From Planctomycetales bacterium (GTDB taxonomy: Bacteria > 4484-113): DNA of 22,633 nt. Both the position numbers and the translations under genes were made by a program. Below are positions 5,847-17,357 of the stretch, piece after piece (the stretch's first letter is position 1; each line of letters begins with the position of its first letter). Where the stretch lies: contig JBBIJQ010000022.1 in assembly GCA_037445915.1 (NCBI GenBank), positions 10,927 to 33,559 on the forward strand, read 5' to 3'. The notes under the pieces were generated by a model. The model ran no database searches. It was not told where the DNA came from and saw only the letters and a program-made list of their open reading frames with translations.

Positions 5847-7106
5847 ATGGGGAAGACTATCATTGAAAAAATCGTTTCCGCCAAGTCCGGCGCGGAAGCG
5901 CATGCGGGAGATGTCGCCTGGATAACGCAGGATTACGTGACCGCCCGCGATTTCGGCGGCGCCAGCGTGGTGGGGAATTTCCGCGAAGCTTTTGGCGTGG
6001 ATGCGCAGGTCTTTGACCCAGCGCGCGTGTTCTTTACCCTGGACTGCAACGCCCCTGCCAACACTGTGGGCTACGCCACAAACCAGCAAATCTGCCGCGA
6101 CTTCGCCCGCGCGATGGGCCTTAAGGTTTACGACGTGGACGCTGGCATCGGAAGCCACCTGCTCATTGAAATGGGCCTCGCGCTCCCCGGCTCCACCGCT
6201 ATCGGCACCGACAGTCACTATAACATCCTCGGCGCGGTTGGCTCGTTCGGGCAGGGCATGGGCGACCTTGACGTGGCATACGGCTTCAAGCACGGCCGCG
6301 TTTGGTTTGACGTGCCGCACACAATCCGCGTGAACGTGAAGGGCAAGCTGATGTCCCACGCTTCGGCCAAAGACCTGACGCTCGCGGTTGTGAAACATTT
6401 CGGCAGCGACGGGCTCATCGGAAAGTGCGCCGAGTTCTACGGCGACGTCATTGACGCGCTGGACGTCCCTGGGCGCATAACGCTGGCGAGCATGGCGACC
6501 GAGATGAGCGCGGTGAGCATTTTTATCCCGCCCAACGACGCGGTTGTGAAGTGGCTGGCGCGGCGCACCGTCGGCAAGGTGGATAACGTCCAGGCCGATG
6601 CTGACGCGAAATACGCCGAAGAAGTGACCATTGAGCTGGGCGACATTGAGCCGATGATAGCCTGCCCGTTCTCGCCGGACAACGTGCGCACGGTGCGCGA
6701 AGTCGCCGAGGAAGGCGTGCGCATTGACAGCGGCTTCATCGGAAGCTGCACCAACGGGCGCGCCGAGGACTTCGCTTCCGCATACGCGCAGCTTGAAGGC
6801 GGCAATGTCGCAGAGCGAGTGACGCTGAAGCTCGTGCCTGCGACGCGCGAAGTTTACGCCGAGATGCTCTTCGGCGGGCTGCTGGAGAAGCTTTTCAGCG
6901 TGGGCGCGCTGGTGCACAACCAGGGCTGCGGCGGATGCGCTGCGGGGCAGGTCGGCATGACCGGCGAAGGCGAGGTGCAGGTGAGCACTTCCAACCGCAA
7001 CTTCCGTGGCAAGCAGGGCGCGGGCAGGACATATCTCGCCAGCCCGGCGACGGTCGCCGCCAGCGTGCGCGCGGGCCGCATCGCCGTTCCCGAGGTGATT
7101 AAATGA
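5847..7106 (+). CDS. Aconitase-family (LeuC/HacA/DmdA-type) dehydratase large subunit, divergent active site
   Basis: MGKTIIEKI start, GTDSH, GSCTNGR, GCGGC (three [4Fe-4S] Cys), STSNRNFRGKQG, YLASP. It has atypical ARDFGG, LDCN and GIGSH motifs. Confidence 0.92.
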   Translation: MGKTIIEKIVSAKSGAEAHAGDVAWITQDYVTARDFGGASVVGNFREAFGVDAQVFDPARVFFTLDCNAPANTVGYATNQQICRDFARAMGLKVYDVDAGIGSHLLIEMGLALPGSTAIGTDSHYNILGAVGSFGQGMGDLDVAYGFKHGRVWFDVPHTIRVNVKGKLMSHASAKDLTLAVVKHFGSDGLIGKCAEFYGDVIDALDVPGRITLASMATEMSAVSIFIPPNDAVVKWLARRTVGKVDNVQADADAKYAEEVTIELGDIEPMIACPFSPDNVRTVREVAEEGVRIDSGFIGSCTNGRAEDFASAYAQLEGGNVAERVTLKLVPATREVYAEMLFGGLLEKLFSVGALVHNQGCGGCAAGQVGMTGEGEVQVSTSNRNFRGKQGAGRTYLASPATVAASVRAGRIAVPEVIK

Positions 7107-7618
7107 GCGAGTTCATTATCAAAGGCAAGGCGTTCCCGCTTCTGGACGGCGACGGCGCGCTCGTGAACAACATAGACACCGACATGATCTTCCACAACAA
7201 GTGGCTGCACATCACGAAGATGGAAGAAATGGGGCAGTACGCGCTGGGCAACCTCAAGGGCTTTGAGGATTTCCCCAAGCGCGTGCAGCCGGGGATGTGG
7301 GTTGTCGCAGGGCGCAACTTCGGCGCAGGCAGCAGCCGCCAGCAGGCGGTGGACTGCTTCAAGGCGCTTGGCTGCGTCGGCATCATCGCCATATCCGTCG
7401 CGCCGATTTACTTGCGCAATGCTATAAACGCCGGTATGCCCGTCGCGCAGGTGCCATGCCTCGCGGGAATGGTGCAGGAAGGCGACGAGATGGCGCTGGA
7501 CATGGAAGCCGGCACGCTTTCCATCGCGCGCACCGGCACTCTCATCCAGGCTGAACCCCCCATTTCCTCCGTCCAGCGCGAGATATACCAGGCCGGCGGC
7601 TTGATGAAGCTGGGGTAG
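7103..7618 (+). CDS. Aconitase-family (LeuD/HacB-type) small subunit
   Basis: NIDTDMI, GRNFGAGSSRQQA, IYLRNAINAG; ATGA overlap with the large-subunit gene. Confidence 0.92.
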   Translation: MSEFIIKGKAFPLLDGDGALVNNIDTDMIFHNKWLHITKMEEMGQYALGNLKGFEDFPKRVQPGMWVVAGRNFGAGSSRQQAVDCFKALGCVGIIAISVAPIYLRNAINAGMPVAQVPCLAGMVQEGDEMALDMEAGTLSIARTGTLIQAEPPISSVQREIYQAGGLMKLG

Positions 7619-7671: not shown

Positions 7672-8853
7672 ATGGAAACGCTTGATTATCACCGCTTGGG
7701 TGCTTCAATTCAGTCTCTCCGCAAGGCGCGTAACATCAGCCAAACAGAACTCGCAAAGGCTATCGGCCTCAAAAGCCCACGCGCAATTTCCGAGCTTGAG
7801 AGCGGCAAACGGGAATTGCGCGGCTCGGAAATACGTGCATTGTGCGACAAACTGGAATGCACGCTCGCCGAGCTTTTTGGCCTGGAGGCAGACCCGCTGG
7901 CGTCAACATCCGGCGCGTGTCTGCGCGGCGATGATGCGAAGGACGAGGAGCTGGTCCGGATTGTGCGAAGGGCGCTGCGCCATGCGAAACTACTTCGTGA
8001 AATTGAAGAGGTCTTAGGGCGCACACCCCTAACTCAGCTGCCGTTGCTGGACAAGAGCTATCCGCTTAGCACGACTTACGAGAGCGCGCGCGAGCAAGCG
8101 ATTGAGCTGGCTGGCTGGATGCGTAATCTCATTGGGGAAAAAGGCGGGCCGGTTGGGAATCTGGAGAAGGCTCTTGAGGCGCACGGAGTTGTTTGGGCAA
8201 CCTGGGACCTGCCGAAAGGGGTTTCGGGATTAACCCTGCGCTGCAACGGAAGGCCGGTCATAATCCTTGAGTCCAGCGAACATGAACAGCGGCAGCGGTT
8301 CACAATGTCTCACGAACTAGCGCATGTTCTTATGGACACATCTGAACATGCTGTGCTAACCCGCGATTACCGTGAAACGGGCAAGGGCCGCAAGAGCCAA
8401 ACAGGAATCGTTGAGCATCGCGCCAACCACTTCGCGGGAGCGTTCTTAATGCCGGAGGCCGCAATACGGGAGTTTGCCGAAGGAAGGTTCAACCTAAGTG
8501 AACCAGTCAAAAACGAGGACATTTCAAAGCTGGCCCGTCATTTTCAAGTAAGTTTTCAGGCGGTGGCTACAAGGCTGGCTCATCTAGGCTTCATCACCTG
8601 GGATCGTTATAGGGAAATCAAAGATAGCCAACTAGAGATGAGAAACCTGCAGCAGATGCCAGGGCAGCTATCAGAAGTCCTTATGGTGTGGGCTGCTAAG
8701 CTTCAGTCTTCGCCGCGCATGCTGGAGCTTATTATTGAAGCACTGGAAAAAGACCTAATCACATTCGGCCGCGCCTGCGAGTTGGCGATGACAGATAGAG
8801 AATCTCTGGAAATGTTTCTCGCCGAATACAGCCGGGTAGAGAATGGAGGGTAG
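7672..8853 (+). CDS. XRE-family HTH + ImmA/IrrE (M78) zinc metallopeptidase fusion
   Basis: N-terminal HTH (LRKARNISQTELAKAIG..ISELESGKR), then RQRFTMSHELAH (HExxH), EHRANHFAGAFLMP, LARHFQVSFQA, and a C-terminal ITFGRACEL motif. Confidence 0.93.
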   Translation: METLDYHRLGASIQSLRKARNISQTELAKAIGLKSPRAISELESGKRELRGSEIRALCDKLECTLAELFGLEADPLASTSGACLRGDDAKDEELVRIVRRALRHAKLLREIEEVLGRTPLTQLPLLDKSYPLSTTYESAREQAIELAGWMRNLIGEKGGPVGNLEKALEAHGVVWATWDLPKGVSGLTLRCNGRPVIILESSEHEQRQRFTMSHELAHVLMDTSEHAVLTRDYRETGKGRKSQTGIVEHRANHFAGAFLMPEAAIREFAEGRFNLSEPVKNEDISKLARHFQVSFQAVATRLAHLGFITWDRYREIKDSQLEMRNLQQMPGQLSEVLMVWAAKLQSSPRMLELIIEALEKDLITFGRACELAMTDRESLEMFLAEYSRVENGG

Positions 8854-9397
8854 AGGGCGCAGCGGGATTGGCGAAGATGAACTACTGGTTACACCGGCTG
8901 TAATGGACTCAAGCATCCTCTATAACTTCGTTCTAATCGGCTGCGTTGACCATTTGGTTTGCGCCTTTGAACAACTGGCAATTACGCCAAGGCTGCGAAG
9001 TGAGATGAGCAAGCACGACATCCTGGCTTCCATTAGTAAGCATGTTGCCGTCAAGCGGATCGTCGTGCTTGACCCTACGCTTGAAGAGAACTTTGTTGCG
9101 GTTTCAATTGTTTCAAGAGGGGCATATGGGAAAAGCCTAAGTGAAACTGATAAGGAAATCATCTCCATCGCAAAGTCGCGTGGATTGAGAGTGCTCTCTG
9201 AAGATACGCCAATGCGAAAAGTAGCTATTGAGCAGGGAATAAGGGAATCCGACCTATTCAACACGCGAGAATGCCTACAGAAGCTTGTTGATTGTGGAAG
9301 ACTAGAGTTAGAGGAAGCGAAAACACACTTTGTGAAAATCAACGAACAGCGTGTTTTACACCGGCATCCTGCGCTTCCCTGGGAAGACGATAGTTAG
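8843..9397 (+). CDS. PIN-domain protein (DUF3368-like), putative ribonuclease/toxin
   Basis: PIN acidic pattern VMDSSIL, SE, LSETDKEIISIA, VLSED. It overlaps the upstream peptidase gene; the exact start is uncertain. Confidence 0.75.
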   Translation: MEGRGRSGIGEDELLVTPAVMDSSILYNFVLIGCVDHLVCAFEQLAITPRLRSEMSKHDILASISKHVAVKRIVVLDPTLEENFVAVSIVSRGAYGKSLSETDKEIISIAKSRGLRVLSEDTPMRKVAIEQGIRESDLFNTRECLQKLVDCGRLELEEAKTHFVKINEQRVLHRHPALPWEDDS

Positions 9398-9475: not shown

Positions 9476-10600
9476 TTACACCCCGCTCACGGTAACGCCC
9501 CGCTTGGCGAGATGCCCCATGAGCCCGGTGAAGCATGCATCATCAAGCCCCAAGTATTCCGGCGTGGAAACGCCCTTGCGGGTGAACACGCCGTCGCGGA
9601 TGAGGCGCACGGCTGCGGTGCCGGTATAGCCGGTCGTGCGCGCCATGGAAGTCGTCTCGCCCTCGCGGTCGTAAGCGTCAAGCAAGTCGTAGGTGAGCGC
9701 CAACTCCTTGCCGTCCTTCACGCCGCTGACCGCCACGCGCATGACGGTGACATCCTCTTCGCCTTCGCGCATCTTCCACTGCGGGAACAGCAGCGCCGCG
9801 GCAACGTCCAGCGGCCGCACCTTCCCCCCGCGCACTTCAAGCTCACCCTTGCCGAACAGCCCCGCCTCGCGCAGCGCGCGCATCTTGTCGGCATGACCGG
9901 GGTAGCGCAGCGTCTTCTCCACCATCTCGTCTGCCTTCAGCACGTTCACGAGCGAGCGCAGCCCGTCGCTGATGAATGCCTCAAGCTTGCCAATGCCAGC
10001 AAAGTCAAGCTGCTCCACTTCCGAAAGCGCGTCCTTAAGCGCGACTTTGCCCCCGCGCACGATGCGCGCCGGCCGCGTGTATTCCTCCAGCACGTCCACC
10101 GCCGAGAACACGACGCGGTAGTTCCACGGCGGCTCCGGCGTGCGCGGCAGCCCGCCTACGTAGATGGCGATGCTGTGCACTGTATCAAGTTGCGTCGTTG
10201 CATGCGCCGCCAGCGCGTGCGAAAGACCCGGCGCAACGCCGCAGTCAGTTATCGCGATGACGCCAAGCTGCTTCGCCGCATCGTGCAGCGGAGTGGGGTC
10301 TTCGGGCATGAAGCTAATGTCAACGACATTGCGCCCGGCTTCAATAATCGCCGCTAGCGACTGGAAGCCCATGTGCCCCGGCAGCGCCAGCACCGCGATG
10401 TCGTGCTCGCGCGCAAGGCGGCCGATGGTTGGCGCGTGGTGCAGGTTCGCGGCTTGCGTAGTGACGCCGGGGATGCCCGCCAGCGTTTGCAGCGCGGCTT
10501 CGTTCGCGTCAATCGCGGTGACTTCAAACTCGCGGTCCATAGCCAGGTCGCGCACCATCGCGCCCCCGACGAGGCCGCATCCAAATACTACAGCTTTCAT
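9476..10600 (-). CDS. Saccharopine dehydrogenase-family protein, most like L-lysine 6-dehydrogenase
   Basis: Rossmann GCGLVG; ALPGHMGF, VDISFMPEDP, GVAPGLS, YVGGLP, EEYTRPAR, EAFISDGLRS, TLRYPGH and SMARTTGY match my recollection of the Pyrococcus horikoshii lysine 6-dehydrogenase. Start placed at ATG 10600, with an AGGTGG SD. Confidence 0.85.
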   Translation of the reverse strand: MKAVVFGCGLVGGAMVRDLAMDREFEVTAIDANEAALQTLAGIPGVTTQAANLHHAPTIGRLAREHDIAVLALPGHMGFQSLAAIIEAGRNVVDISFMPEDPTPLHDAAKQLGVIAITDCGVAPGLSHALAAHATTQLDTVHSIAIYVGGLPRTPEPPWNYRVVFSAVDVLEEYTRPARIVRGGKVALKDALSEVEQLDFAGIGKLEAFISDGLRSLVNVLKADEMVEKTLRYPGHADKMRALREAGLFGKGELEVRGGKVRPLDVAAALLFPQWKMREGEEDVTVMRVAVSGVKDGKELALTYDLLDAYDREGETTSMARTTGYTGTAAVRLIRDGVFTRKGVSTPEYLGLDDACFTGLMGHLAKRGVTVSGV

Positions 10601-10612
10601 ACAGGCCACCTG

Positions 10613-11728
10613 TTAGAGCTTAGAGACGATAGCTTCGGCCATCTCCATCGTGGAGCTGCTGCCGCCCATATCATATGTGCGCACCTTGCCTTCGGCAATG
10701 ACCGCCGCAATCGCAGCCTCAAGCTTTTCCGCTCCCGCGCCTTCTCCGAGCCAGTCAAGCATCAGCTTCGCCGAAAGCAGCATGGCGATCGGATTCACTT
10801 TGTATTGACCGGCGTATTTCGGCGCGCTGCCATGCGTCGGCTCAAAGACCGCGTACTTGTCGCCGATATTCCCGCTGGCGGCAAAGCCCATCCCGCCCAC
10901 GAGTTGCCCCGCAAGGTCGCTGATTATGTCGCCAAACATGTTGGAGGCGACGAGCACGTCGTATGCGAGCGGGCTCTTGAGCAGCCACATGCACATCGCG
11001 TCAATGTTCGCCTCGTCAAAAGCAATGCCGGGGTAATCCTTCGCAAGCTTGCGCCCGGCGCGCACCATCATTCCGCTTGTCTCGCGCACGACGTTGGGCT
11101 TTTCCACCATAGTCACGCGCTTGCGCCCGTGCTTCTTCGCGTATTCAAATGCCTGGCGCGTAATGCTCTCACAGCCCTTCACCGTGTTCAGGCGAACGCT
11201 TATCGCCATTTCATCATTCGGGGTCGCGGAAAACCGCTTCGCCTTCGGGTGCGTGTCCAGCGCGGCGCGCACGGCGTCGGGGATGGGGTGCCACTCTATC
11301 CCCGCGTAAAGGTCTTCAGTGTTCTCGCGAAAGACGGTTAGGTTGATGCCCTCGCAGTAAACCAGCGGGTTTCCGGGGTAACCCTTGCAGGGGCGAAGCG
11401 CCGTGTGCAAATTGAACTCCTGGCGCATCTGCACGATGGGCGAGAAGTAGCTCAGCCCCTTGCCCTGCAATTCCGGCGCAAGCTCGGCGGCGGCCTCGTC
11501 TCGCGGCTTGCTGGTGATAGCGCCGAAAAGCGCGCAGTCAGTGTTGCGCAGTAGCTCTTTGGTGCGGTCGGGGAAGGGGTTGCCCTCGCTGCGCCAGAAC
11601 TCCCAGCCGATGTCGCCGTGAACGTATTCAGCGTCCAGCTTCATCGCGTCAAGCACGAGGCGCGCGGCCTCCATCACGTCGTTGCCCACTCCGTCGCCGG
11701 GCAGCCATGCAATCCGGTACTTAGCCAT
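10613..11728 (-). CDS. Isocitrate/isopropylmalate dehydrogenase family protein, homoisocitrate dehydrogenase-like
   Basis: PGDGVG, RENTEDLY, KPNV, NMFGDIISDL, EPTHGSAP. The substrate loop ALFGAITS..YFSPIVQMR resembles fungal Lys12 (ALFGAVQS..YSSPIVALR, from memory). GGAGG SD. Confidence 0.88.
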   Translation of the reverse strand: MAKYRIAWLPGDGVGNDVMEAARLVLDAMKLDAEYVHGDIGWEFWRSEGNPFPDRTKELLRNTDCALFGAITSKPRDEAAAELAPELQGKGLSYFSPIVQMRQEFNLHTALRPCKGYPGNPLVYCEGINLTVFRENTEDLYAGIEWHPIPDAVRAALDTHPKAKRFSATPNDEMAISVRLNTVKGCESITRQAFEYAKKHGRKRVTMVEKPNVVRETSGMMVRAGRKLAKDYPGIAFDEANIDAMCMWLLKSPLAYDVLVASNMFGDIISDLAGQLVGGMGFAASGNIGDKYAVFEPTHGSAPKYAGQYKVNPIAMLLSAKLMLDWLGEGAGAEKLEAAIAAVIAEGKVRTYDMGGSSSTMEMAEAIVSKL

Positions 11729-11743
11729 TATTAATTCCTCCGG

Positions 11744-12229
11744 TTACTTCTTCGCGTATTTATCGCGCAGGTATTCAATGAGCCCGCCGGCTTCCAGTAT
11801 CGCCGTAACTTCGGCGGGGAACGGCGGAAAGGTGAAGTCCCCCTTGCTCGTGCGCACGACGCCTGCCGCGAAATCCACTTCCGCCGTGTCGCCGTTTTCA
11901 AGCGCGCGCGCGGCTTCGGGGAGCGCCAGCGCGGGCAGGCCGCTGTTAATGCAGTTACGGTAAAAGATGCGGGCGAAGCTTTCGGCGATGACCGCCGCCA
12001 CGCCGCAGTATTTGGGCGCGAGCACGGCCTGTTCGCGGCTTGAGCCGCATCCGAAGTTCTTCCCCGCCACGATGACGTCGCCGGGCTGCACCTTCTTAGC
12101 GAATTCGGGGTCAAGGTCCTCCAGCGCATGCTGCGCCATTTCCGCAGGCTCGGAAACGGTGTAGGTGTATTTGCCGGGGAACAGCACGTCGGTGTTCACG
12201 TCGTCGCCGTATTTGAAGACTTTTCCCAT
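11744..12229 (-). CDS. Homoaconitase-like (LeuD/HacB-type) small subunit
   Basis: The true start is ATG 12229 (TAATG overlap). [42 protein letters not shown] and SSREQA recall the C-terminal domain of fungal Lys4. Confidence 0.92.
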
Positions 12230-13479
12230 TAGAAGTACTCCTTCGGCGACACAATCTCGCCGGCGATGGCGCTGGCGGCGACGGTCGCGGGGCTTGCCAG
12301 GTAAATCTCCGAGTTGGGGTCGCCCATGCGCCCCTTGAAGTTGCGGTTCGCCGTGGAGAGGCATACCTCGCCCGGCGCCAGCGCGCCTTCGTGCGCCCCC
12401 AGGCAGGGGCCGCAGCCTGGATTCATCCATACTGCGCCGGCGTCCACCGACGGCGCGACTAAGCCCTCGTCAATGGCCTGACGGTAAACCTTCATAGACG
12501 CCGGGAAAATTAGCAGCCGCACGCTCGGCGCTGCATGCTTTCCCGCGAGCACCTTGGCCGCGGTGCGGATGTCTTCAATGCGGCCGTTGGTGCAGGTGCC
12601 GATGAGCGCCTGGTCAATGCGCTTGCCCTTGTATTCGCCCACCGGCTTCACGTTGTCCACCGTGTGCGGCGCGGCGACCATCGCGTCCAGCGCGCCAAGG
12701 TCAAAGGAATGCTTCGCAATATATTTCGCATCGGGGTCGGAAAGCAGCGCGGCATGTTTTCCGTTTGGCTCGTTGAGGAATTCTGCGGTCACTGCGTCCG
12801 GAGGGAAGTAGCCGTTCTTCGAGCCCATCTCTGCCGATAGGTTGCACAGCACCATGCGGTCGGAGATGGAAAGCTGTGCTGCGGCATCCCCCGTGAACTC
12901 CACGGCGAGATATAGCGCGCCGTCCGCGCCGATGTGCCCGATTATCGCGAGCGCCAGGTCTTTCGCCGATACCCACGGCTTGAATGCGCCGGCAAGCTCA
13001 AGGCGCATCGTCTCCGGGCAAAGCAGCCACAGCCCGCCGGATACCCACACTCCCGCCGTCTCGGTGCGCCCCACCCCGGCGGCGAATGCGCCGACAGCGC
13101 CCGCAGTGGGCGTGTGCGAATCGCTGCCAAGGATGAGCCGCCCGGGGTAGGCGTAGCCGTCCTCCACCATGATTTGGTGGCAGACGCCGCGCCCGACATC
13201 GTAGAAGTGCGTGATGCCCTGCGCCGCCACGAACTCGCGGATGGCCTTGTGGTTGGCGGCATGCTTGTTGTCGGCGGCGGGCGTCACGTGGTCAAGCACG
13301 ATGACCGCGCGGTCGGGATACTTGAGTTTGGTAACGCCAATGGACGGCAGCTTCTTGAGGATGGCGGCGGAGTTGTCGTGCGAGAGGATGAAGTCGGGCT
13401 CCAGCGTGACAATCTCCCCCGCGTGCACTTCGCGGCCGGCCTTGAGGCTGAACACCTTTTCGCTAAACGTTTTTCCCAT
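12229..13479 (-). CDS. Homoaconitase-like (LeuC/HacA-type) large subunit
   Basis: SHDNS, VLDH, GVCHQ, GSDSHT, GTCTNGR, GCGPCLG, STANRNFKGRMG, YLASP; canonical catalytic residues are present. SHDNS recalls fungal Lys4. Confidence 0.93.
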   Translation of the reverse strand: MGKTFSEKVFSLKAGREVHAGEIVTLEPDFILSHDNSAAILKKLPSIGVTKLKYPDRAVIVLDHVTPAADNKHAANHKAIREFVAAQGITHFYDVGRGVCHQIMVEDGYAYPGRLILGSDSHTPTAGAVGAFAAGVGRTETAGVWVSGGLWLLCPETMRLELAGAFKPWVSAKDLALAIIGHIGADGALYLAVEFTGDAAAQLSISDRMVLCNLSAEMGSKNGYFPPDAVTAEFLNEPNGKHAALLSDPDAKYIAKHSFDLGALDAMVAAPHTVDNVKPVGEYKGKRIDQALIGTCTNGRIEDIRTAAKVLAGKHAAPSVRLLIFPASMKVYRQAIDEGLVAPSVDAGAVWMNPGCGPCLGAHEGALAPGEVCLSTANRNFKGRMGDPNSEIYLASPATVAASAIAGEIVSPKEYF

Positions 13480-14023
13480 ATTTCAGCACCAACGGTTCAA
13501 AGTTGAGGAAGTCCGCGTGGTTCACGATTATCGCTTCCAGTGTCGCGCGCGCATTGTCGCCTTCGTGGCTGTGATACATCACGCCGTGAACTACCGCGTC
13601 CGGCAGGCCCCATTTCATGCAAAGCCCGCTGCCCGACACGGGATGGCGCAGCAACTTGCCGCTCGCGCTCTTCACGTATGCGCCGTCCTTGTCGCGCCTG
13701 TATTCAAGCAGCTTGCCCACGTCGTGCAGCAGCGCGGTTGCCAACAAAATGTCGCGGTCGGCCTGCATCGCGCCTTCGCCCGCCCAGCTTGCGCTAAGCG
13801 AATCGGCGATGGCGAGCGCGGTGTTGGTCACGCGCCGCGTGTGGTCAAGGAAGCTCGCGGGGCATCCCTTGATGAGCAGCGTGAAGGGCATCTGCGCCAT
13901 GTCTTCGGGCTTCCAGCCGCCCATCTCCAGCGCGTCGGCGAACGCGGCGATGACTTTGCCGCGCAGCGCGCCGTCCTTGAACAACCCAAGCTCGGGTATC
14001 AGCGTGAAAAGTTCGTCGTTCAT
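13463..14023 (-). CDS. HD (HDIG-type) domain metal-dependent phosphohydrolase
   Basis: DHTRRV, LLHDVGK, RHPVSG, YHSHEGD, NHADF; it overlaps both neighbours. Confidence 0.9.
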   Translation of the reverse strand: MNDELFTLIPELGLFKDGALRGKVIAAFADALEMGGWKPEDMAQMPFTLLIKGCPASFLDHTRRVTNTALAIADSLSASWAGEGAMQADRDILLATALLHDVGKLLEYRRDKDGAYVKSASGKLLRHPVSGSGLCMKWGLPDAVVHGVMYHSHEGDNARATLEAIIVNHADFLNFEPLVLKYGKNV

Positions 14024-14805
14024 TTTTTCTCCAATTCGCGGGGCGCGGGCCCGTCATAGATTGCTTCCGAGGCGACGATGTTGCGCATCGGCTTTTCGCG
14101 GGTGACTTCTTCGTGGTAATGCGCGGCCATTCCGGCGACGCGCGGCAGCAGGAAGAAGAAGTTGCTGACCTCCACCGGGAACTCCAGCTCGCAAAGCAGC
14201 GCCGCCACTGCGCCGTCCACGTTGAGCGGCAGCGGCTTGCCCGTCTGCGCCGACACTTCCGCGCCGATGAGCTGCGCAAGCTTGAGGTAGGGGCCTTCAC
14301 GGCCCGCCTCGCGCGCCAGCTCAATGAGCCGCTTTGTGCGCGGGTCGTCGGTATGCACGCGGTGGCCAAAGCCTGCAAGGCGCTTCTTTTGCTCCAGCGC
14401 CTGGCGCACGTATTCCTTGGCGAATTCCTCCGGCGTCTTCTTGCTCGCCTCCATCAAGTCATGCGCGTAAAGGAACATGCGCATGGCGGGCTCAATCGCC
14501 GCGCCGTGGTGCTTGTTGATGGAGAGCACTCCCGCCGCCAATGCCGCGTTCAGCGGGGCGCCGGTGGTCGCGGAAATGCGCGCGGCCTGCGCCGACGGGG
14601 GCGTTATGCCGTGGTCAATGCTGGCCAAGAGCATCGCGTCGTAGAGCTTCTCCTCGGCGGGGCTGGGCAGCCTGCCGTGGAAGAGCAGGAAGATGCCGCC
14701 CGCGAGGCTGACATGCCCCATCAGCTCGTCAATGCGGTAGCCGCGCACGCGGATCTCGTTTGGCTTGATGCTCGTTATCGCCGTTTTCCAGGTTTTATCA
14801 GTCAT
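14020..14805 (-). CDS. Citryl-CoA lyase-like protein (short citrate-synthase fold)
   Basis: 261 aa; WKTAIT, IRVRGY, DHGITPPS, HHGAAIE, GFGHRVH..DPR, LNVDG. Confidence 0.9.
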   Translation of the reverse strand: MTDKTWKTAITSIKPNEIRVRGYRIDELMGHVSLAGGIFLLFHGRLPSPAEEKLYDAMLLASIDHGITPPSAQAARISATTGAPLNAALAAGVLSINKHHGAAIEPAMRMFLYAHDLMEASKKTPEEFAKEYVRQALEQKKRLAGFGHRVHTDDPRTKRLIELAREAGREGPYLKLAQLIGAEVSAQTGKPLPLNVDGAVAALLCELEFPVEVSNFFFLLPRVAGMAAHYHEEVTREKPMRNIVASEAIYDGPAPRELEKK

Positions 14806-15710
14806 TATTTCCTCATCCTTGAAAGGACTTCGGCGGTCGTCGCCGGGAGGTCCTCAAAGTTTTCCACGATGACGGCGCCCGCGGAGCGCAGCGCGTCAAC
14901 CTTGCTTTGGTAGCCGCCGCGCCCGCCTTCAACAATCGCGCCCGCGTGCGAAAAGCGCGTGCCTTCCTCCGCCTGCTTGCCGCCGATGTAAGCGACGAGC
15001 GGCTTCGTGAACTCGCCGCGCCGCATCATCTCCGCGACGCGCTCTTCCTGCGTCGTGCCGATTTCGCCGAACATGACGACGAGGTCGGTCTCCGGGTCGT
15101 CCTGGAAGAGCTTCACTATCGCGGGATGCGGCAGCCCGACGATGCTGTCGCCGCCGACGTGCACGATGGTGCTCGCGCCGATGCCCGCTTTCTTCAGGTA
15201 ATACGCGATGCTGGAAGTGATGCCGCCGCTTCGGCTGCTTATGCCCACGCGCCCCGGCGTGAAGAAGCGCCCTGCGGCTTCGGGGCTTCCGCCCATCATC
15301 CCCAGCACGCCCTTCCCCGGCGAGAGGCAGCCCAGCGTGTTCGGGCCGAGGAAGCTCGCGCCGCGCTCGGCGGCGAACTTCGTGAGCTTCATCACGTCGT
15401 GCAGCGGGACGCGGTCGGGGACGATGACGACGAGCTTCACGCCTGCGTCCATCGCCTCCATCGCCGCGTCCGCCGCGCCCGGCGCGGGCACGAACACGAC
15501 GCTCGCGTCAATCTGCCCGACGGCTTCGGCCGCCTGGCGCACGCTGTCAAACACCGGCACGCCCAGCGTTTCCTCGCCGCCGCGCCCCGGCGTCACCCCC
15601 GCGACGACCTTGGGGCCGTAGCCGAGCATCAGCTTGCTGCGCGCCTGGCCTTCGCGGCCGGTGATGCCCTGCACGACGACGCGGGTGTTTTCATTTACGA
15701 GTATGCTCAT
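14805..15710 (-). CDS. Acyl-CoA synthetase (NDP-forming) alpha subunit, SucD/citryl-CoA synthetase small-subunit-like
   Basis: MSILVNENTRVVVQGITG, GVTPG, FVPAP, GPNTLG, SRSGG, GEIG, FSHAGA (phospho-His). VPDRVP replaces the usual ITEGIP. Confidence 0.92.
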   Translation of the reverse strand: MSILVNENTRVVVQGITGREGQARSKLMLGYGPKVVAGVTPGRGGEETLGVPVFDSVRQAAEAVGQIDASVVFVPAPGAADAAMEAMDAGVKLVVIVPDRVPLHDVMKLTKFAAERGASFLGPNTLGCLSPGKGVLGMMGGSPEAAGRFFTPGRVGISSRSGGITSSIAYYLKKAGIGASTIVHVGGDSIVGLPHPAIVKLFQDDPETDLVVMFGEIGTTQEERVAEMMRRGEFTKPLVAYIGGKQAEEGTRFSHAGAIVEGGRGGYQSKVDALRSAGAVIVENFEDLPATTAEVLSRMRK

Positions 15711-17251
15711 TTCGCGCCCCGCTTCGCAAGGTATTCGTCAAAGCCGGGAATGGGCAGGTCTATGCGCAGCGAGCGCTTGCGTATTTCAAAGCACGCCATT
15801 TCGCAGGCGAGGCATTCGGTGCAGCGCTTAGCCGATTCATCGGCTGGCTCCTTCAGGCGCGGCTTGCCGTCCACCGCCTCCAGTATCTCCACATGGCAGC
15901 TTGCGATGCAGGGCTTGTTCTCGCAACTTGCGCAAATCGCATGGTCAAAGCTGATGCGGCCGCTGCGTATCTTGAACGCGTATTCTTCCTTTGCGGGAGC
16001 GGTGCGGCAAGTCGGCTCGCACTCATACGGCGCGACCGGCGGATATTCTTTCACCAATTCCGCCAGACGCGAGGCGCAGAACGCCGCGCTGTCGTCCCTG
16101 CCATAAGCCTCCACCGGCACCGGCAGGTCGGCGAGGAAGCGCGTGAGGATGTCTATCGCGACTTCTTCCTTGTTCCCGCCGAGGCGTATTACCGCGGGGA
16201 CATAGAGCGGCCATTCGCGGAACGCCTTGACCATGCCGCGCGCGGAGTGGAACTGCTCCTGGCTGGCGACGCCGCTGCCGCTCGCGAAGTAGCCGACGAT
16301 GCCGCCCTGCGCGAGGATGTGCTTGGCGGCGCGGTAAACCTTCGCCGCGCTGGGGTTGCCGCTGGTGTCGCAGAAGTTCTTGGCGGTGAAGCCGTTGCGC
16401 ACCAGCGCGTCCATGCTCATCATGGAGCCGCCGCCGCCTGCGCCGTGGAAGCCCACCAGCCTGTCGCCCTTCGCGCCAAGCTCCAGGAAGTAGAAGGTGC
16501 CTCGGTGGTCGGTGGCTTCGTAGGCCGCCGCGATTTTCTCCAGCTCCGTGGGAGGATGCCCGATTTCACGGGCGATTTCCACCTCAAGCTCGGGATGGCG
16601 CGGCACTGCGTAATCGTCAACCGAGAAATGGCAATCCGCCGCGACCAGCGTGCCGTCATCAAGTATGACCACGGGGTTCACTTCCAGGCTGCGCGCTTCT
16701 TCGGCGAGGAACACGCGCACGAGGCTGACGAGAAAGTCTGCGACGACGCCAAGCTCCTTGCCGCCGAAGCCGCATTCCACCGCGATGGCGCGCGCTTCAA
16801 ACGGGCGCAGGCCCAGCGCGGGGTCAAAGGGCTTGCGCACCAGCTTCGCGCGCCTTTCCTTCGCCATGTCTTCAACGCCGGTGCCGCCCCGGTCTGCAAG
16901 CACGACAAGCGGGCCGGGGATTTCATCGGAGACGAGGCAGGCGGCGAAAAATTCGCGCGCGATGGGAAGCTTCTGCTCAACGAGCACTAACTCAATGGGG
17001 AAGCCGCCTACGACCTTGCCCAGCATCTCCGCCGCTGCATCCTTGGATTCATCGGGCGTGTCGCAGAACTTGATGAGCCCCTTGCCAGCGCGGCCGGTGA
17101 CGAACGCCTGCGCCTTCACTACGACCGGCCCGCCAATGCGCGCAGCCGCCTCCGCCGCGCCTTGCGGGGATGTGGTTGTTTCGCCTGCGGGGATAGTTAT
17201 GCCGAAGCTTGAGAGGATGCTTTTCGCTTTGTGTTCAAGTAGTTTAGCCAT
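15707..17251 (-). CDS. Acyl-CoA synthetase (NDP-forming) beta subunit, SucC/citryl-CoA synthetase-like, with C-terminal ferredoxin-like domain
   Basis: Start ATG 17251 (MAKLLEHKAK). VVKAQ..TGRAGKG, LEVNP, GAGGGGSM, DTSGNP, VIRLGGN; C-terminal CASCENKPCIASC and CTECLACEMAC. Confidence 0.9.
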   Translation of the reverse strand: MAKLLEHKAKSILSSFGITIPAGETTTSPQGAAEAAARIGGPVVVKAQAFVTGRAGKGLIKFCDTPDESKDAAAEMLGKVVGGFPIELVLVEQKLPIAREFFAACLVSDEIPGPLVVLADRGGTGVEDMAKERRAKLVRKPFDPALGLRPFEARAIAVECGFGGKELGVVADFLVSLVRVFLAEEARSLEVNPVVILDDGTLVAADCHFSVDDYAVPRHPELEVEIAREIGHPPTELEKIAAAYEATDHRGTFYFLELGAKGDRLVGFHGAGGGGSMMSMDALVRNGFTAKNFCDTSGNPSAAKVYRAAKHILAQGGIVGYFASGSGVASQEQFHSARGMVKAFREWPLYVPAVIRLGGNKEEVAIDILTRFLADLPVPVEAYGRDDSAAFCASRLAELVKEYPPVAPYECEPTCRTAPAKEEYAFKIRSGRISFDHAICASCENKPCIASCHVEILEAVDGKPRLKEPADESAKRCTECLACEMACFEIRKRSLRIDLPIPGFDEYLAKRGAK

Positions 17252-17357
17252 TCGCCACCCGCCTAAGATTATACGGTCTTTCCCTCCCCCCGATAACCCC
17301 CTGCCTGTAATCAAGCCTATGCGCTAGAATCATCGCAACTATATTCCGGTGGCTTAT
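17252..17357. promoter_or_regulatory. Divergent promoter region for the CoA-ligase operon and sppA
   Basis: Minus-strand TATAAT (17273-17268) lies 16 nt before ATG 17251, with a GGCGGGTGG SD-like tract. Plus-strand TAGAAT (17325-17330) and GGTGG precede ATG 17358. Confidence 0.55.

Follow-up and report, generated by a model that had tools for sequence, protein, structure and literature searches.

An eight-gene operon of a Planctomycetales bacterium that may run the upper alpha-aminoadipate pathway in reverse through ATP-dependent cleavage of homocitrate

The stretch of DNA analyzed here (the window; 22,633 nucleotides, G000:C22:10927-33559) belongs to an uncultured, anaerobic Planctomycetales bacterium whose assembly, G000, comprises 1.79 Mb in 120 contigs and was rated 90% complete. 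On its minus strand, from position 17251 down to 9476, eight open reading frames (ORFs) were identified by ORF calls and translations, all of them co-directional. In 5' to 3' order they encode the beta and alpha subunits of a coenzyme A (CoA) ligase, a citrate synthase-family lyase, an HD-domain protein, LeuC-like and LeuD-like hydro-lyase subunits, a beta-decarboxylating dehydrogenase and a member of the saccharopine dehydrogenase family. We propose, with moderate confidence, that this operon encodes an ATP-dependent, catabolic upper alpha-aminoadipate pathway that would operate in reverse and convert 2-oxoadipate to acetyl-CoA and 2-oxoglutarate. Homocitrate would be preferred over citrate as the substrate of ligase and lyase, to judge from the SPIV-type loop of the dehydrogenase, the different Ser-x-Asn loop of isocitrate dehydrogenase (IDH) paralogues in related genomes, two dehydratases accompanying the cluster, a piperideine-6-carboxylate dehydrogenase encoded elsewhere in the genome and the lack of a homocitrate synthase.

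The Operon Dehydrogenase Carries a Loop of the Homoisocitrate Dehydrogenase Type

The substrate loop of the operon dehydrogenase was aligned with that of the other cluster copies, which stem from many phyla. All 51 of 51 copies shared the pattern LFGAITS-x-P, a 15-residue insertion and Y-x-SPIV-x-x-RQ. By contrast, the six Iso_dh paralogues from related genomes uniformly displayed KGP-x-TTP...S-x-N-V (6/6), as do solved IDHs (6LTF, 2IV0), and the paralogue of the family relative G005 scored best on IDH models (379 bits). The Ser-x-Asn loop of the IDH type is thus not found in the operon dehydrogenase. When the loop segment alone was searched against the PDB, no match was obtained at E<=0.01; the top hit, at an E-value of 0.036 that denotes a motif match and not a statistical one, was the homoisocitrate dehydrogenase (HICDH) of S. 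pombe (3TY3; ALFGAVQSP...YSSPIVALRK), and up to E<=10 no other solved chain shared its SPIV loop. For the N-terminal half of the protein, the closest solved relative was the HICDH of Thermus thermophilus. A passage of PMC3556520 places the activity of the yeast enzyme Lys12p on isocitrate near the detection limit.

The motifs SHDNS, PGKYTY, SSREQA, ALFGA and Y-x-SPIV, which a preliminary description of this DNA had likened to those of fungal Lys4 and Lys12, were all present in the translations, and for the dehydrogenase the likeness held in that its loop is of the fungal HICDH type (3TY3) and not of the IDH type.

Two Dehydratases Accompany the Cluster

The LeuC-like and LeuD-like proteins of the operon (LeuC1 and LeuD1) make up a LeuCD-type enzyme of two subunits that falls in the hacA family, whose model TIGR01343 is a subfamily-level one that also takes in isopropylmalate (IPM) isomerases. 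LeuD1 matched the homoaconitase small subunit 2PKP at 4e-42, and its loop GK(Y/H)TY was kept in 22 of 22 orthologues.

A second LeuCD pair (LeuC2 and LeuD2), overlooked in the preliminary description, lies on the plus strand at 5847-7618 of the window and is found within the operon in other lineages. In G015, G016, L111 and L124, homologues of LeuC2 lie within the operon and are co-directional with it; in L092, L119, L107 and L125 they come immediately after the lyase or HD gene. LeuD2 carries the loop HNKWLH (WLHI), unlike LeuD1. LeuC2D2 is therefore the probable partner dehydratase of the system as far as gene neighborhoods can tell. Where a second dehydratase accompanies the cluster, it is either LeuC2D2 or a PrpD-family protein, the latter in 24 of 80 loci. 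Passages of PMC3556520 state that fungal homoaconitases interconvert homoaconitate and homoisocitrate only, that aconitases of fungi and Thermus form homoaconitate from homocitrate and that homocitrate isomerization in these organisms takes two enzymes. The presence of two dehydratases with the cluster fits this two-enzyme isomerization.

Ligase and Lyase Resemble the Citryl-CoA Synthetase/Lyase System, with Differences in the Beta Subunit

The ligase and lyase genes resemble CcsAB/Ccl of Hydrogenobacter thermophilus (6HXQ, 6HXP) in that a citrate synthase-family lyase of about 260 residues comes after an ADP-forming ligase of two subunits, and an alignment revealed GGGGS and GNP motifs common to the beta subunit and 6HXQ. 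However, the operon beta subunit is nearer to SucC: its best PDB match was the SucC structure 3UFX (1e-50, 176 bits), followed by the large subunit of H. thermophilus citryl-CoA synthetase (6HXQ; 9e-35, 124 bits), of which the 429-residue chain aligned to residues 11-345 only. NCBIfam SucC models gave 199 bits for the beta subunit (cut-off 370), the sucCoAalpha model gave 297 bits for the alpha subunit (cut-off 353), and a weak Pfam Citrate_bind match of the beta subunit (22 bits) stayed below its cut-off of 26.8. In addition, the beta subunit has a C-terminal ferredoxin-like extension, CxxCx4Cx3C plus CxxCxxCx3C, which is an extra domain relative to CcsAB and gave no Pfam match at E<=0.001. 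All eight of its cysteines were conserved without exception in the 45 beta subunits aligned, which stem from many phyla. The operon further differs from CcsAB/Ccl in that its genes adjoin homoaconitase-like and HICDH-like genes instead of TCA (tricarboxylic acid) cycle genes, and in that its probable substrate is homocitrate.

The cleavage module varies among lineages. In a Calditrichota variant, a divergently placed CitF stands in for the ligase and passed the citF equivalog model (550 bits, cut-off 501); in L068, L071, L073 and 10 further loci of this type, the CitF-type CoA-transferase and a TrmB regulator stand beside the lyase, HD, dehydrogenase and PrpD genes. This variant, which is not that of the window, resembles the citrate lyase CitDEF in having a CitF-type transferase beside the lyase, but neither CitD nor CitE was among the recurrent neighbor families of the 80 loci, and the cleavage enzyme of the cluster belongs to the citrate synthase family. 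In Anaerolineae-type loci (L060, L062, L066, L067, L072, L081 and L087), a gene for a UbiD-family decarboxylase follows the lyase gene instead of those for HD protein, LeuCD and dehydrogenase. Finally, the class relatives G019 and G022 (L151, L162) were unmatched by the lyase query, yet encode an SPIV-type dehydrogenase with 68-70% identity; there, other cleavage enzymes may be the partners of the dehydrogenase module.

A Probable Link of the Operon to Lysine Degradation in the Family and by Co-occurrence

The last operon gene had been described as lysine 6-dehydrogenase-like, and it indeed proved to be a full-length homologue of PH1688 (3ABI; 1.4e-62 over residues 4-376), the L-lysine 6-dehydrogenase of Pyrococcus horikoshii according to a passage of PMC10413350. 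It differs from PH1688 in its setting, 3 bases from the dehydrogenase gene and in the window's family only, and is to be taken as a homologue by sequence. A genome search for a dehydrogenase of the aminoadipate semialdehyde type identified a piperideine-6-carboxylate dehydrogenase on contig C37 of G000, which exceeded the pip_6_carb_DH equivalog cut-off (798 bits, cut-off 730). Members of this enzyme family exceeded the cut-off in 21 of the 24 genomes of the class and in 3 of 17 unrelated genomes. In sister-family genomes, lysine dehydrogenase homologues at 41-52% identity are encoded elsewhere in the genome.

Co-occurrence was determined for 38 genomes with lyase and SPIV dehydrogenase genes in one locus and 12 comparison genomes without a dehydrogenase gene at the lyase locus, 4 of 54 intended loci having been left out for size. 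Piperideine-6-carboxylate dehydrogenase (E<=1e-150) was present in 25 of the 38 module genomes vs. 1 of 12, and a lysine dehydrogenase homologue (>=42% identity) in 16 of 38 vs. 0 of 12; these counts ignore kinship, so that the rows are not independent, many being Calditrichota or Acidobacteriota. The contrast is blurred by 7 of the 12 comparison genomes, which have an SPIV-type dehydrogenase elsewhere in the genome; the remaining 5 have the lyase and no such dehydrogenase.

The Genome Context Favors the Catabolic Direction

The preliminary description had noted the lack of a homocitrate, IPM or citramalate synthase gene in the window. This was borne out and extended to the whole assembly, where the search for HMGL-like synthases (LeuA, CimA, homocitrate synthase) returned 0 matches. 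Across the 24 class genomes (G000-G023) no match was strong; those that occurred were weak and partial and lay in ORFs of about 600 residues. Ketol-acid reductoisomerase (KARI; IlvC) was likewise absent from G000 and all 23 class relatives searched, and each of 14 control genomes was matched in both searches. With no KARI and no strong HMGL-like synthase, the class appears to be without branched-chain amino acid synthesis, and a leucine/isoleucine operon, considered for the LeuCD and LeuB-like genes, was rejected on these grounds. Neither LysA nor a genuine LysX was identified in G000; the best LysX match scored as a RimK-type ligase (LysX_arch 98, cut-off 276). The window's lineage thus appears to be auxotrophic for several amino acids.

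G000 also encodes a 2-oxoacid:ferredoxin oxidoreductase, a pyruvate:ferredoxin oxidoreductase (PFOR) and a second SucC. Its sole acyl-CoA dehydrogenase scored best as the acryloyl/butyryl-CoA type (488 bits) and missed the glutaryl-CoA cut-off (337 bits, cut-off 470), so that there is no clear sign of the classical exit from 2-oxoadipate. The aldehyde dehydrogenase step of lysine degradation runs toward aminoadipate. Catabolism is favored because LysA, LysX and homocitrate synthase are lacking, because of this direction of the aldehyde dehydrogenase, because a glutaryl-CoA exit is not evident and because oxidoreductases and a second SucC are available for the products.

A search for ordinary TCA cycle enzymes identified none in G000 beyond the operon, which holds the sole citrate synthase-family, aconitase-family and Iso_dh-family genes of the assembly, as confirmed by tblastn with the proteins of a relative. 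Of the seven family relatives with the cluster, five (G002, G005-G008) additionally encode a full-length citrate synthase, an aconitase of about 650 residues and an IDH paralogue. G003 has no second Iso_dh, and G001 (62% complete) has none of the three; within the family, only the window's genus (G000, G001) is without all three separate genes.

Synteny of the Operon Extends Beyond Chance

The eight co-directional, mostly overlapping genes had been reported in the order given above, and both the ORF calls and the Pfam and NCBIfam assignments, which agreed for every gene, support this layout. The first five junctions are overlaps of 4, 1, 4, 17 and 1 bases, in that order, and the last two leave gaps of 15 and 3 bases. 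The minus strand is free of terminator-like sites within the unit, and a promoter and terminator scan gave counts no higher than in shuffled sequences. By tblastn, the order was identical in 6 other genomes of the window's family at 59-94% identity, and a seventh locus was truncated by the contig end. As all eight genes are syntenic in these 6 further genomes, the arrangement goes beyond chance; the operon is genuine and conserved.

When 40 relatives were searched with the lyase, strong matches at 50-86% identity came from 7 of 8 same-family genomes, 3 of 10 genomes of a sister family in the order and 2 of 4 genomes belonging to a third family. The order-level relatives G013, G015 and G016 possess the genes for ligase, lyase, HD protein, LeuC1D1 and dehydrogenase, but none has the lysine dehydrogenase gene; in G015 and G016 the core genes are followed downstream by LeuC2D2. 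Extra ORFs within these two versions were without pathway-related content.

A scan of a species-genome collection gave 455 confirmed lyase relatives. ORF clustering of the best 80 loci, in which counts are lower bounds since many loci end at contig edges, assigned the lyase to 80/80 loci, ligase alpha to 56/80, ligase beta to 51/80, the HD protein, placed after the lyase, to 51/80, the dehydrogenase to 44/80, LeuC/D to 30/80, the MmgE/PrpD-family protein (about 457 residues) to 24/80, TrmB to 16/80 and CitF to 13/80. The loci stem from Planctomycetales-labeled metagenome-assembled genomes (the window's family), Anaerolineae, Calditrichota, Acidobacteriota, KSB1, Neomarinimicrobiota, Aminicenantes and others. 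Thus, a core of SucCD-like ligase, citryl-CoA lyase homologue, HD protein, LeuCD-type hydro-lyase and IDH-family dehydrogenase recurs across many phyla of anaerobic heterotrophs.

Proposed Pathway

In the pathway proposed here, the lysine 6-dehydrogenase homologue would convert lysine to aminoadipate semialdehyde/piperideine-6-carboxylate, which the dehydrogenase encoded on contig C37 would oxidize to 2-aminoadipate, and an aminotransferase would yield 2-oxoadipate. The operon dehydrogenase, acting in reverse, would reductively carboxylate 2-oxoadipate to homoisocitrate. LeuC1D1 would then dehydrate homoisocitrate to cis-homoaconitate, and LeuC2D2, or the PrpD-like enzyme in other lineages, would hydrate this intermediate to homocitrate. 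The SucCD-like ligase would form homocitryl-CoA at the expense of ATP, and the citrate synthase-family lyase would release acetyl-CoA and 2-oxoglutarate. The latter could re-enter transamination or be oxidized via 2-oxoacid:ferredoxin oxidoreductase and succinyl-CoA synthetase. All substrate assignments in these steps are predictions from homology and gene context.

The scheme resembles the upper alpha-aminoadipate pathway (homocitrate synthase, HacAB or Lys4 plus aconitase, and Lys12/HICDH) in its LeuCD-type hydro-lyase, second dehydratase and SPIV-loop dehydrogenase. It differs in that ligase and lyase stand where the synthase would be, in its proposed reversed direction and in that no lower-pathway genes were found in G000, where LysA and LysX were searched for. 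Literature searches (citryl-CoA lyase with homoaconitase, homocitryl, homocitrate cleavage and a reverse aminoadipate route), with supplements outside their reach, returned no description of the route, in agreement with the earlier statement that no characterized pathway has this composition. The preliminary description had also inferred that ligase and lyase act on homocitrate, in a route that could be catabolic or biosynthetic. The catabolic form is supported in part by the dehydrogenase loop, the lysine 6-dehydrogenase homologue, the piperideine-6-carboxylate dehydrogenase and the lack of LysA, LysX and synthase; the part that rested on ligase and lyase themselves drew no support from their sequences, which do not separate homocitrate from citrate.

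Evidence Against Homocitrate Cleavage and Alternative Explanations

Several observations weigh against this pathway. The operon dehydrogenase missed every equivalog cut-off in NCBIfam, the best models being AksF2_Meth (328, cut-off 540), AksF_Meth (259, cut-off 500) and iso_homocit_dh (169, cut-off 680). LeuD1 differs from the methanogen homoaconitase in its loop, YTYT, which lacks the Arg of the Methanocaldococcus jannaschii loop YLRT (2PKP). In addition, a glutaryl-CoA route would be expected to yield more ATP. The link to lysine is also incomplete: 13 of the 38 module genomes are without piperideine-6-carboxylate dehydrogenase, and the kinship among the sampled genomes weakens the co-occurrence itself. 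The expected linkage of the lysine dehydrogenase gene to homologous clusters was found within the window's family but not outside it. The gene occurs in the cluster in only 6 of the 80 loci, every one from this family, and cluster genes were found around none of 20 homologues outside it (0/20 loci); those of Acidobacteriota neighbor transporter and peptidase genes.

The remaining objections lead to a citrate/isocitrate branch, which we regard as rather unlikely. Here, ligase and lyase would interconvert citrate with acetyl-CoA and oxaloacetate, as CcsAB/Ccl do, the LeuCD-type enzyme would be an aconitase and the dehydrogenase an IDH, so that 2-oxoglutarate would be connected to acetyl-CoA and oxaloacetate, by oxidation with a gain of ATP or by reduction in a reverse TCA cycle or glutamate fermentation. 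The lyase exceeded the cut-off of the NCBIfam subfamily model NF004869, 'citryl-CoA lyase' (250.6, cut-off 212), and matched H. thermophilus citryl-CoA lyase (CCL; 6HXP) along its full length (1.9e-58 over residues 3-259), being about half identical with the catalytic motifs kept. No column of the lyase alignment split the contexts with SPIV dehydrogenase from the 5 genomes without it, and neither the lyase nor the ligase sequence tells homocitrate from citrate. The equivalog-level CitF of the Calditrichota variant points to citrate. The lack of any other citrate synthase, aconitase or IDH in the window's genus is accounted for equally well by the citrate branch, and PFOR, 2-oxoacid:ferredoxin oxidoreductase and a second SucC would suit it. 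Isocitrate is also accepted by the HICDH of T. thermophilus, to which the N-terminal half of the dehydrogenase is closest among solved structures.

However, the SPIV loop was found in every cluster copy and the S-x-N loop in true IDH paralogues of the same family, and most cluster-bearing family relatives already possess citrate synthase, aconitase and IDH. Citrate would need no more than one aconitase-type enzyme, whereas the cluster is accompanied by two dehydratases, and the beta subunit scores higher against SucC than against CcsA. A reverse TCA cycle supporting autotrophy was considered and is made unlikely by the auxotrophies, as neither branched-chain amino acid nor lysine synthesis is evident, and by the separate TCA cycle genes of these relatives.

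Comparably doubtful is an explanation in which the system acts on another 2-hydroxy-2-substituted succinate, i.e., a longer citrate homologue or an alkylmalate, and the lysine dehydrogenase homologue on a different amine. Equivalog cut-offs in NCBIfam were reached by no ligase subunit, hydro-lyase subunit or dehydrogenase of the operon. The loops of LeuD1 and LeuD2 match no characterized enzyme, neither being YLRT (M. jannaschii homoaconitase) or YLVY (its IPM isomerase). A UbiD-family gene is paired with ligase and lyase in 7 loci, and the lyase occurs without an SPIV dehydrogenase in 5 of the 12 comparison genomes. Set against this are the match of the loop to a homoisocitrate-specific enzyme and the co-occurrence of the module with lysine-to-aminoadipate genes; moreover, dicarboxylic 2-oxoacids are the known substrates of citrate synthase-family enzymes.

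Highly improbable, finally, is the anabolic direction, in which 2-oxoglutarate and acetyl-CoA would yield homocitryl-CoA, then homocitrate and ATP, and finally 2-oxoadipate as a thioester-conserving stand-in for homocitrate synthase: an HMGL-type synthase is lacking in genome and class and all steps, including the lysine dehydrogenase reaction, should in principle be reversible, but no LysA or LysX-type gene exceeded its cut-off, the conversion of 2-aminoadipate to the semialdehyde would need the aldehyde dehydrogenase to run backwards and a costly lysine route is unexpected where several other amino acid pathways are missing.

Features of the Window

The features are summarized in Table 1. 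The start of the ligase beta gene was taken as the ATG at 17251; the mechanical ORF begins at a TTG at 17314.

Table 1. Genes and domains of the operon and the second hydro-lyase pair, with positions in the window and family scores.
Feature	Position	Strand	Length (aa)	Family match
ADP-forming CoA ligase beta subunit (ATP-grasp)	15707..17251	-	514	PF08442 at 4e-39
C-terminal ferredoxin-like extension of beta subunit	15710..15964	-		CxxCx4Cx3C + CxxCxxCx3C
CoA ligase alpha subunit	14805..15710	-	301	CoA_binding + Ligase_CoA domains
Short citrate synthase-family acyl-CoA lyase (citryl-CoA lyase homologue)	14020..14805	-	261	
HD-domain protein	13463..14023	-	186	PF01966 at 9.5e-14
LeuC/HacA-type hydro-lyase large subunit (LeuC1)	12229..13479	-	416	hacA_fam TIGR01343 516, cut-off 385.7; PRK00402 534
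LeuD/HacB-type small subunit (LeuD1)	11744..12229	-	161	LEUD_arch 197, cut-off 109
Beta-decarboxylating dehydrogenase with HICDH-type loop	10613..11728	-	371	Iso_dh family
L-lysine 6-dehydrogenase homologue	9476..10609	-	377	Sacchrp_dh_C 2e-45
Second LeuC-type large subunit (LeuC2)	5847..7106	+		PRK00402 396, cut-off 385
Second LeuD-type small subunit (LeuD2)	7103..7618	+		LEUD_arch 116, cut-off 109

The HD protein was modeled by AlphaFold2 (AF2) with a mean confidence (pLDDT) of 95.6. A Foldseek search of the PDB gave generic HD folds with a single match at E<=0.001, YhaM (1e-4), and did not lead to a function. In most homologues the His of the HD dyad is replaced by Ala (consensus LLADVGK); the window copy keeps the His, and the Asp is invariant.

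Between LeuD2 and the end of the operon, positions 7672-9397 of the plus strand encode a helix-turn-helix (HTH)/IrrE-M78 peptidase and an overlapping ORF of 184 residues. The pair is present in the loci of G001, G006 and G008 and not in those of G005 and G007, and looks like a variable insertion. In the congener G001 (L041, 9990-12073), about 2 kb are inserted between the lyase and ligase alpha genes; the window has no such insertion. A search for riboswitches and other RNAs in the window gave 0 Rfam matches at gathering thresholds.

Implications

Taken together, it is plausible, though in our estimate evenly balanced, that the cluster represents a widespread and undescribed central carbon route of anaerobic protein degraders. 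An Fe-S-bearing SucCD-like ligase and the lyase would act as an ATP-dependent 'homocitrate lyase' and, with homoaconitase-like, PrpD- or LeuCD2-type and HICDH-like enzymes, would shorten lysine-derived 2-oxoadipate with fixation of CO2 to acetyl-CoA and 2-oxoglutarate. The route would mirror 2-oxoacid chain elongation, and its cleavage modules would be interchangeable. If so, it would be a new fate of lysine and 2-oxoadipate in anoxic habitats and would include the first citrate synthase-family lyase and SucCD-type ligase to act on homocitrate. The enzymes could serve for the synthesis or cleavage of C6 and C7 tricarboxylates. Citryl-CoA synthetase (CCS) and CCL are taken as markers of the reverse TCA cycle in surveys such as PMC9802188; such genes would have to be reassigned in heterotrophs and inventories of carbon fixation corrected. 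More generally, the chemistry of 2-oxoacid elongation would then be usable backwards, as a catabolic module.

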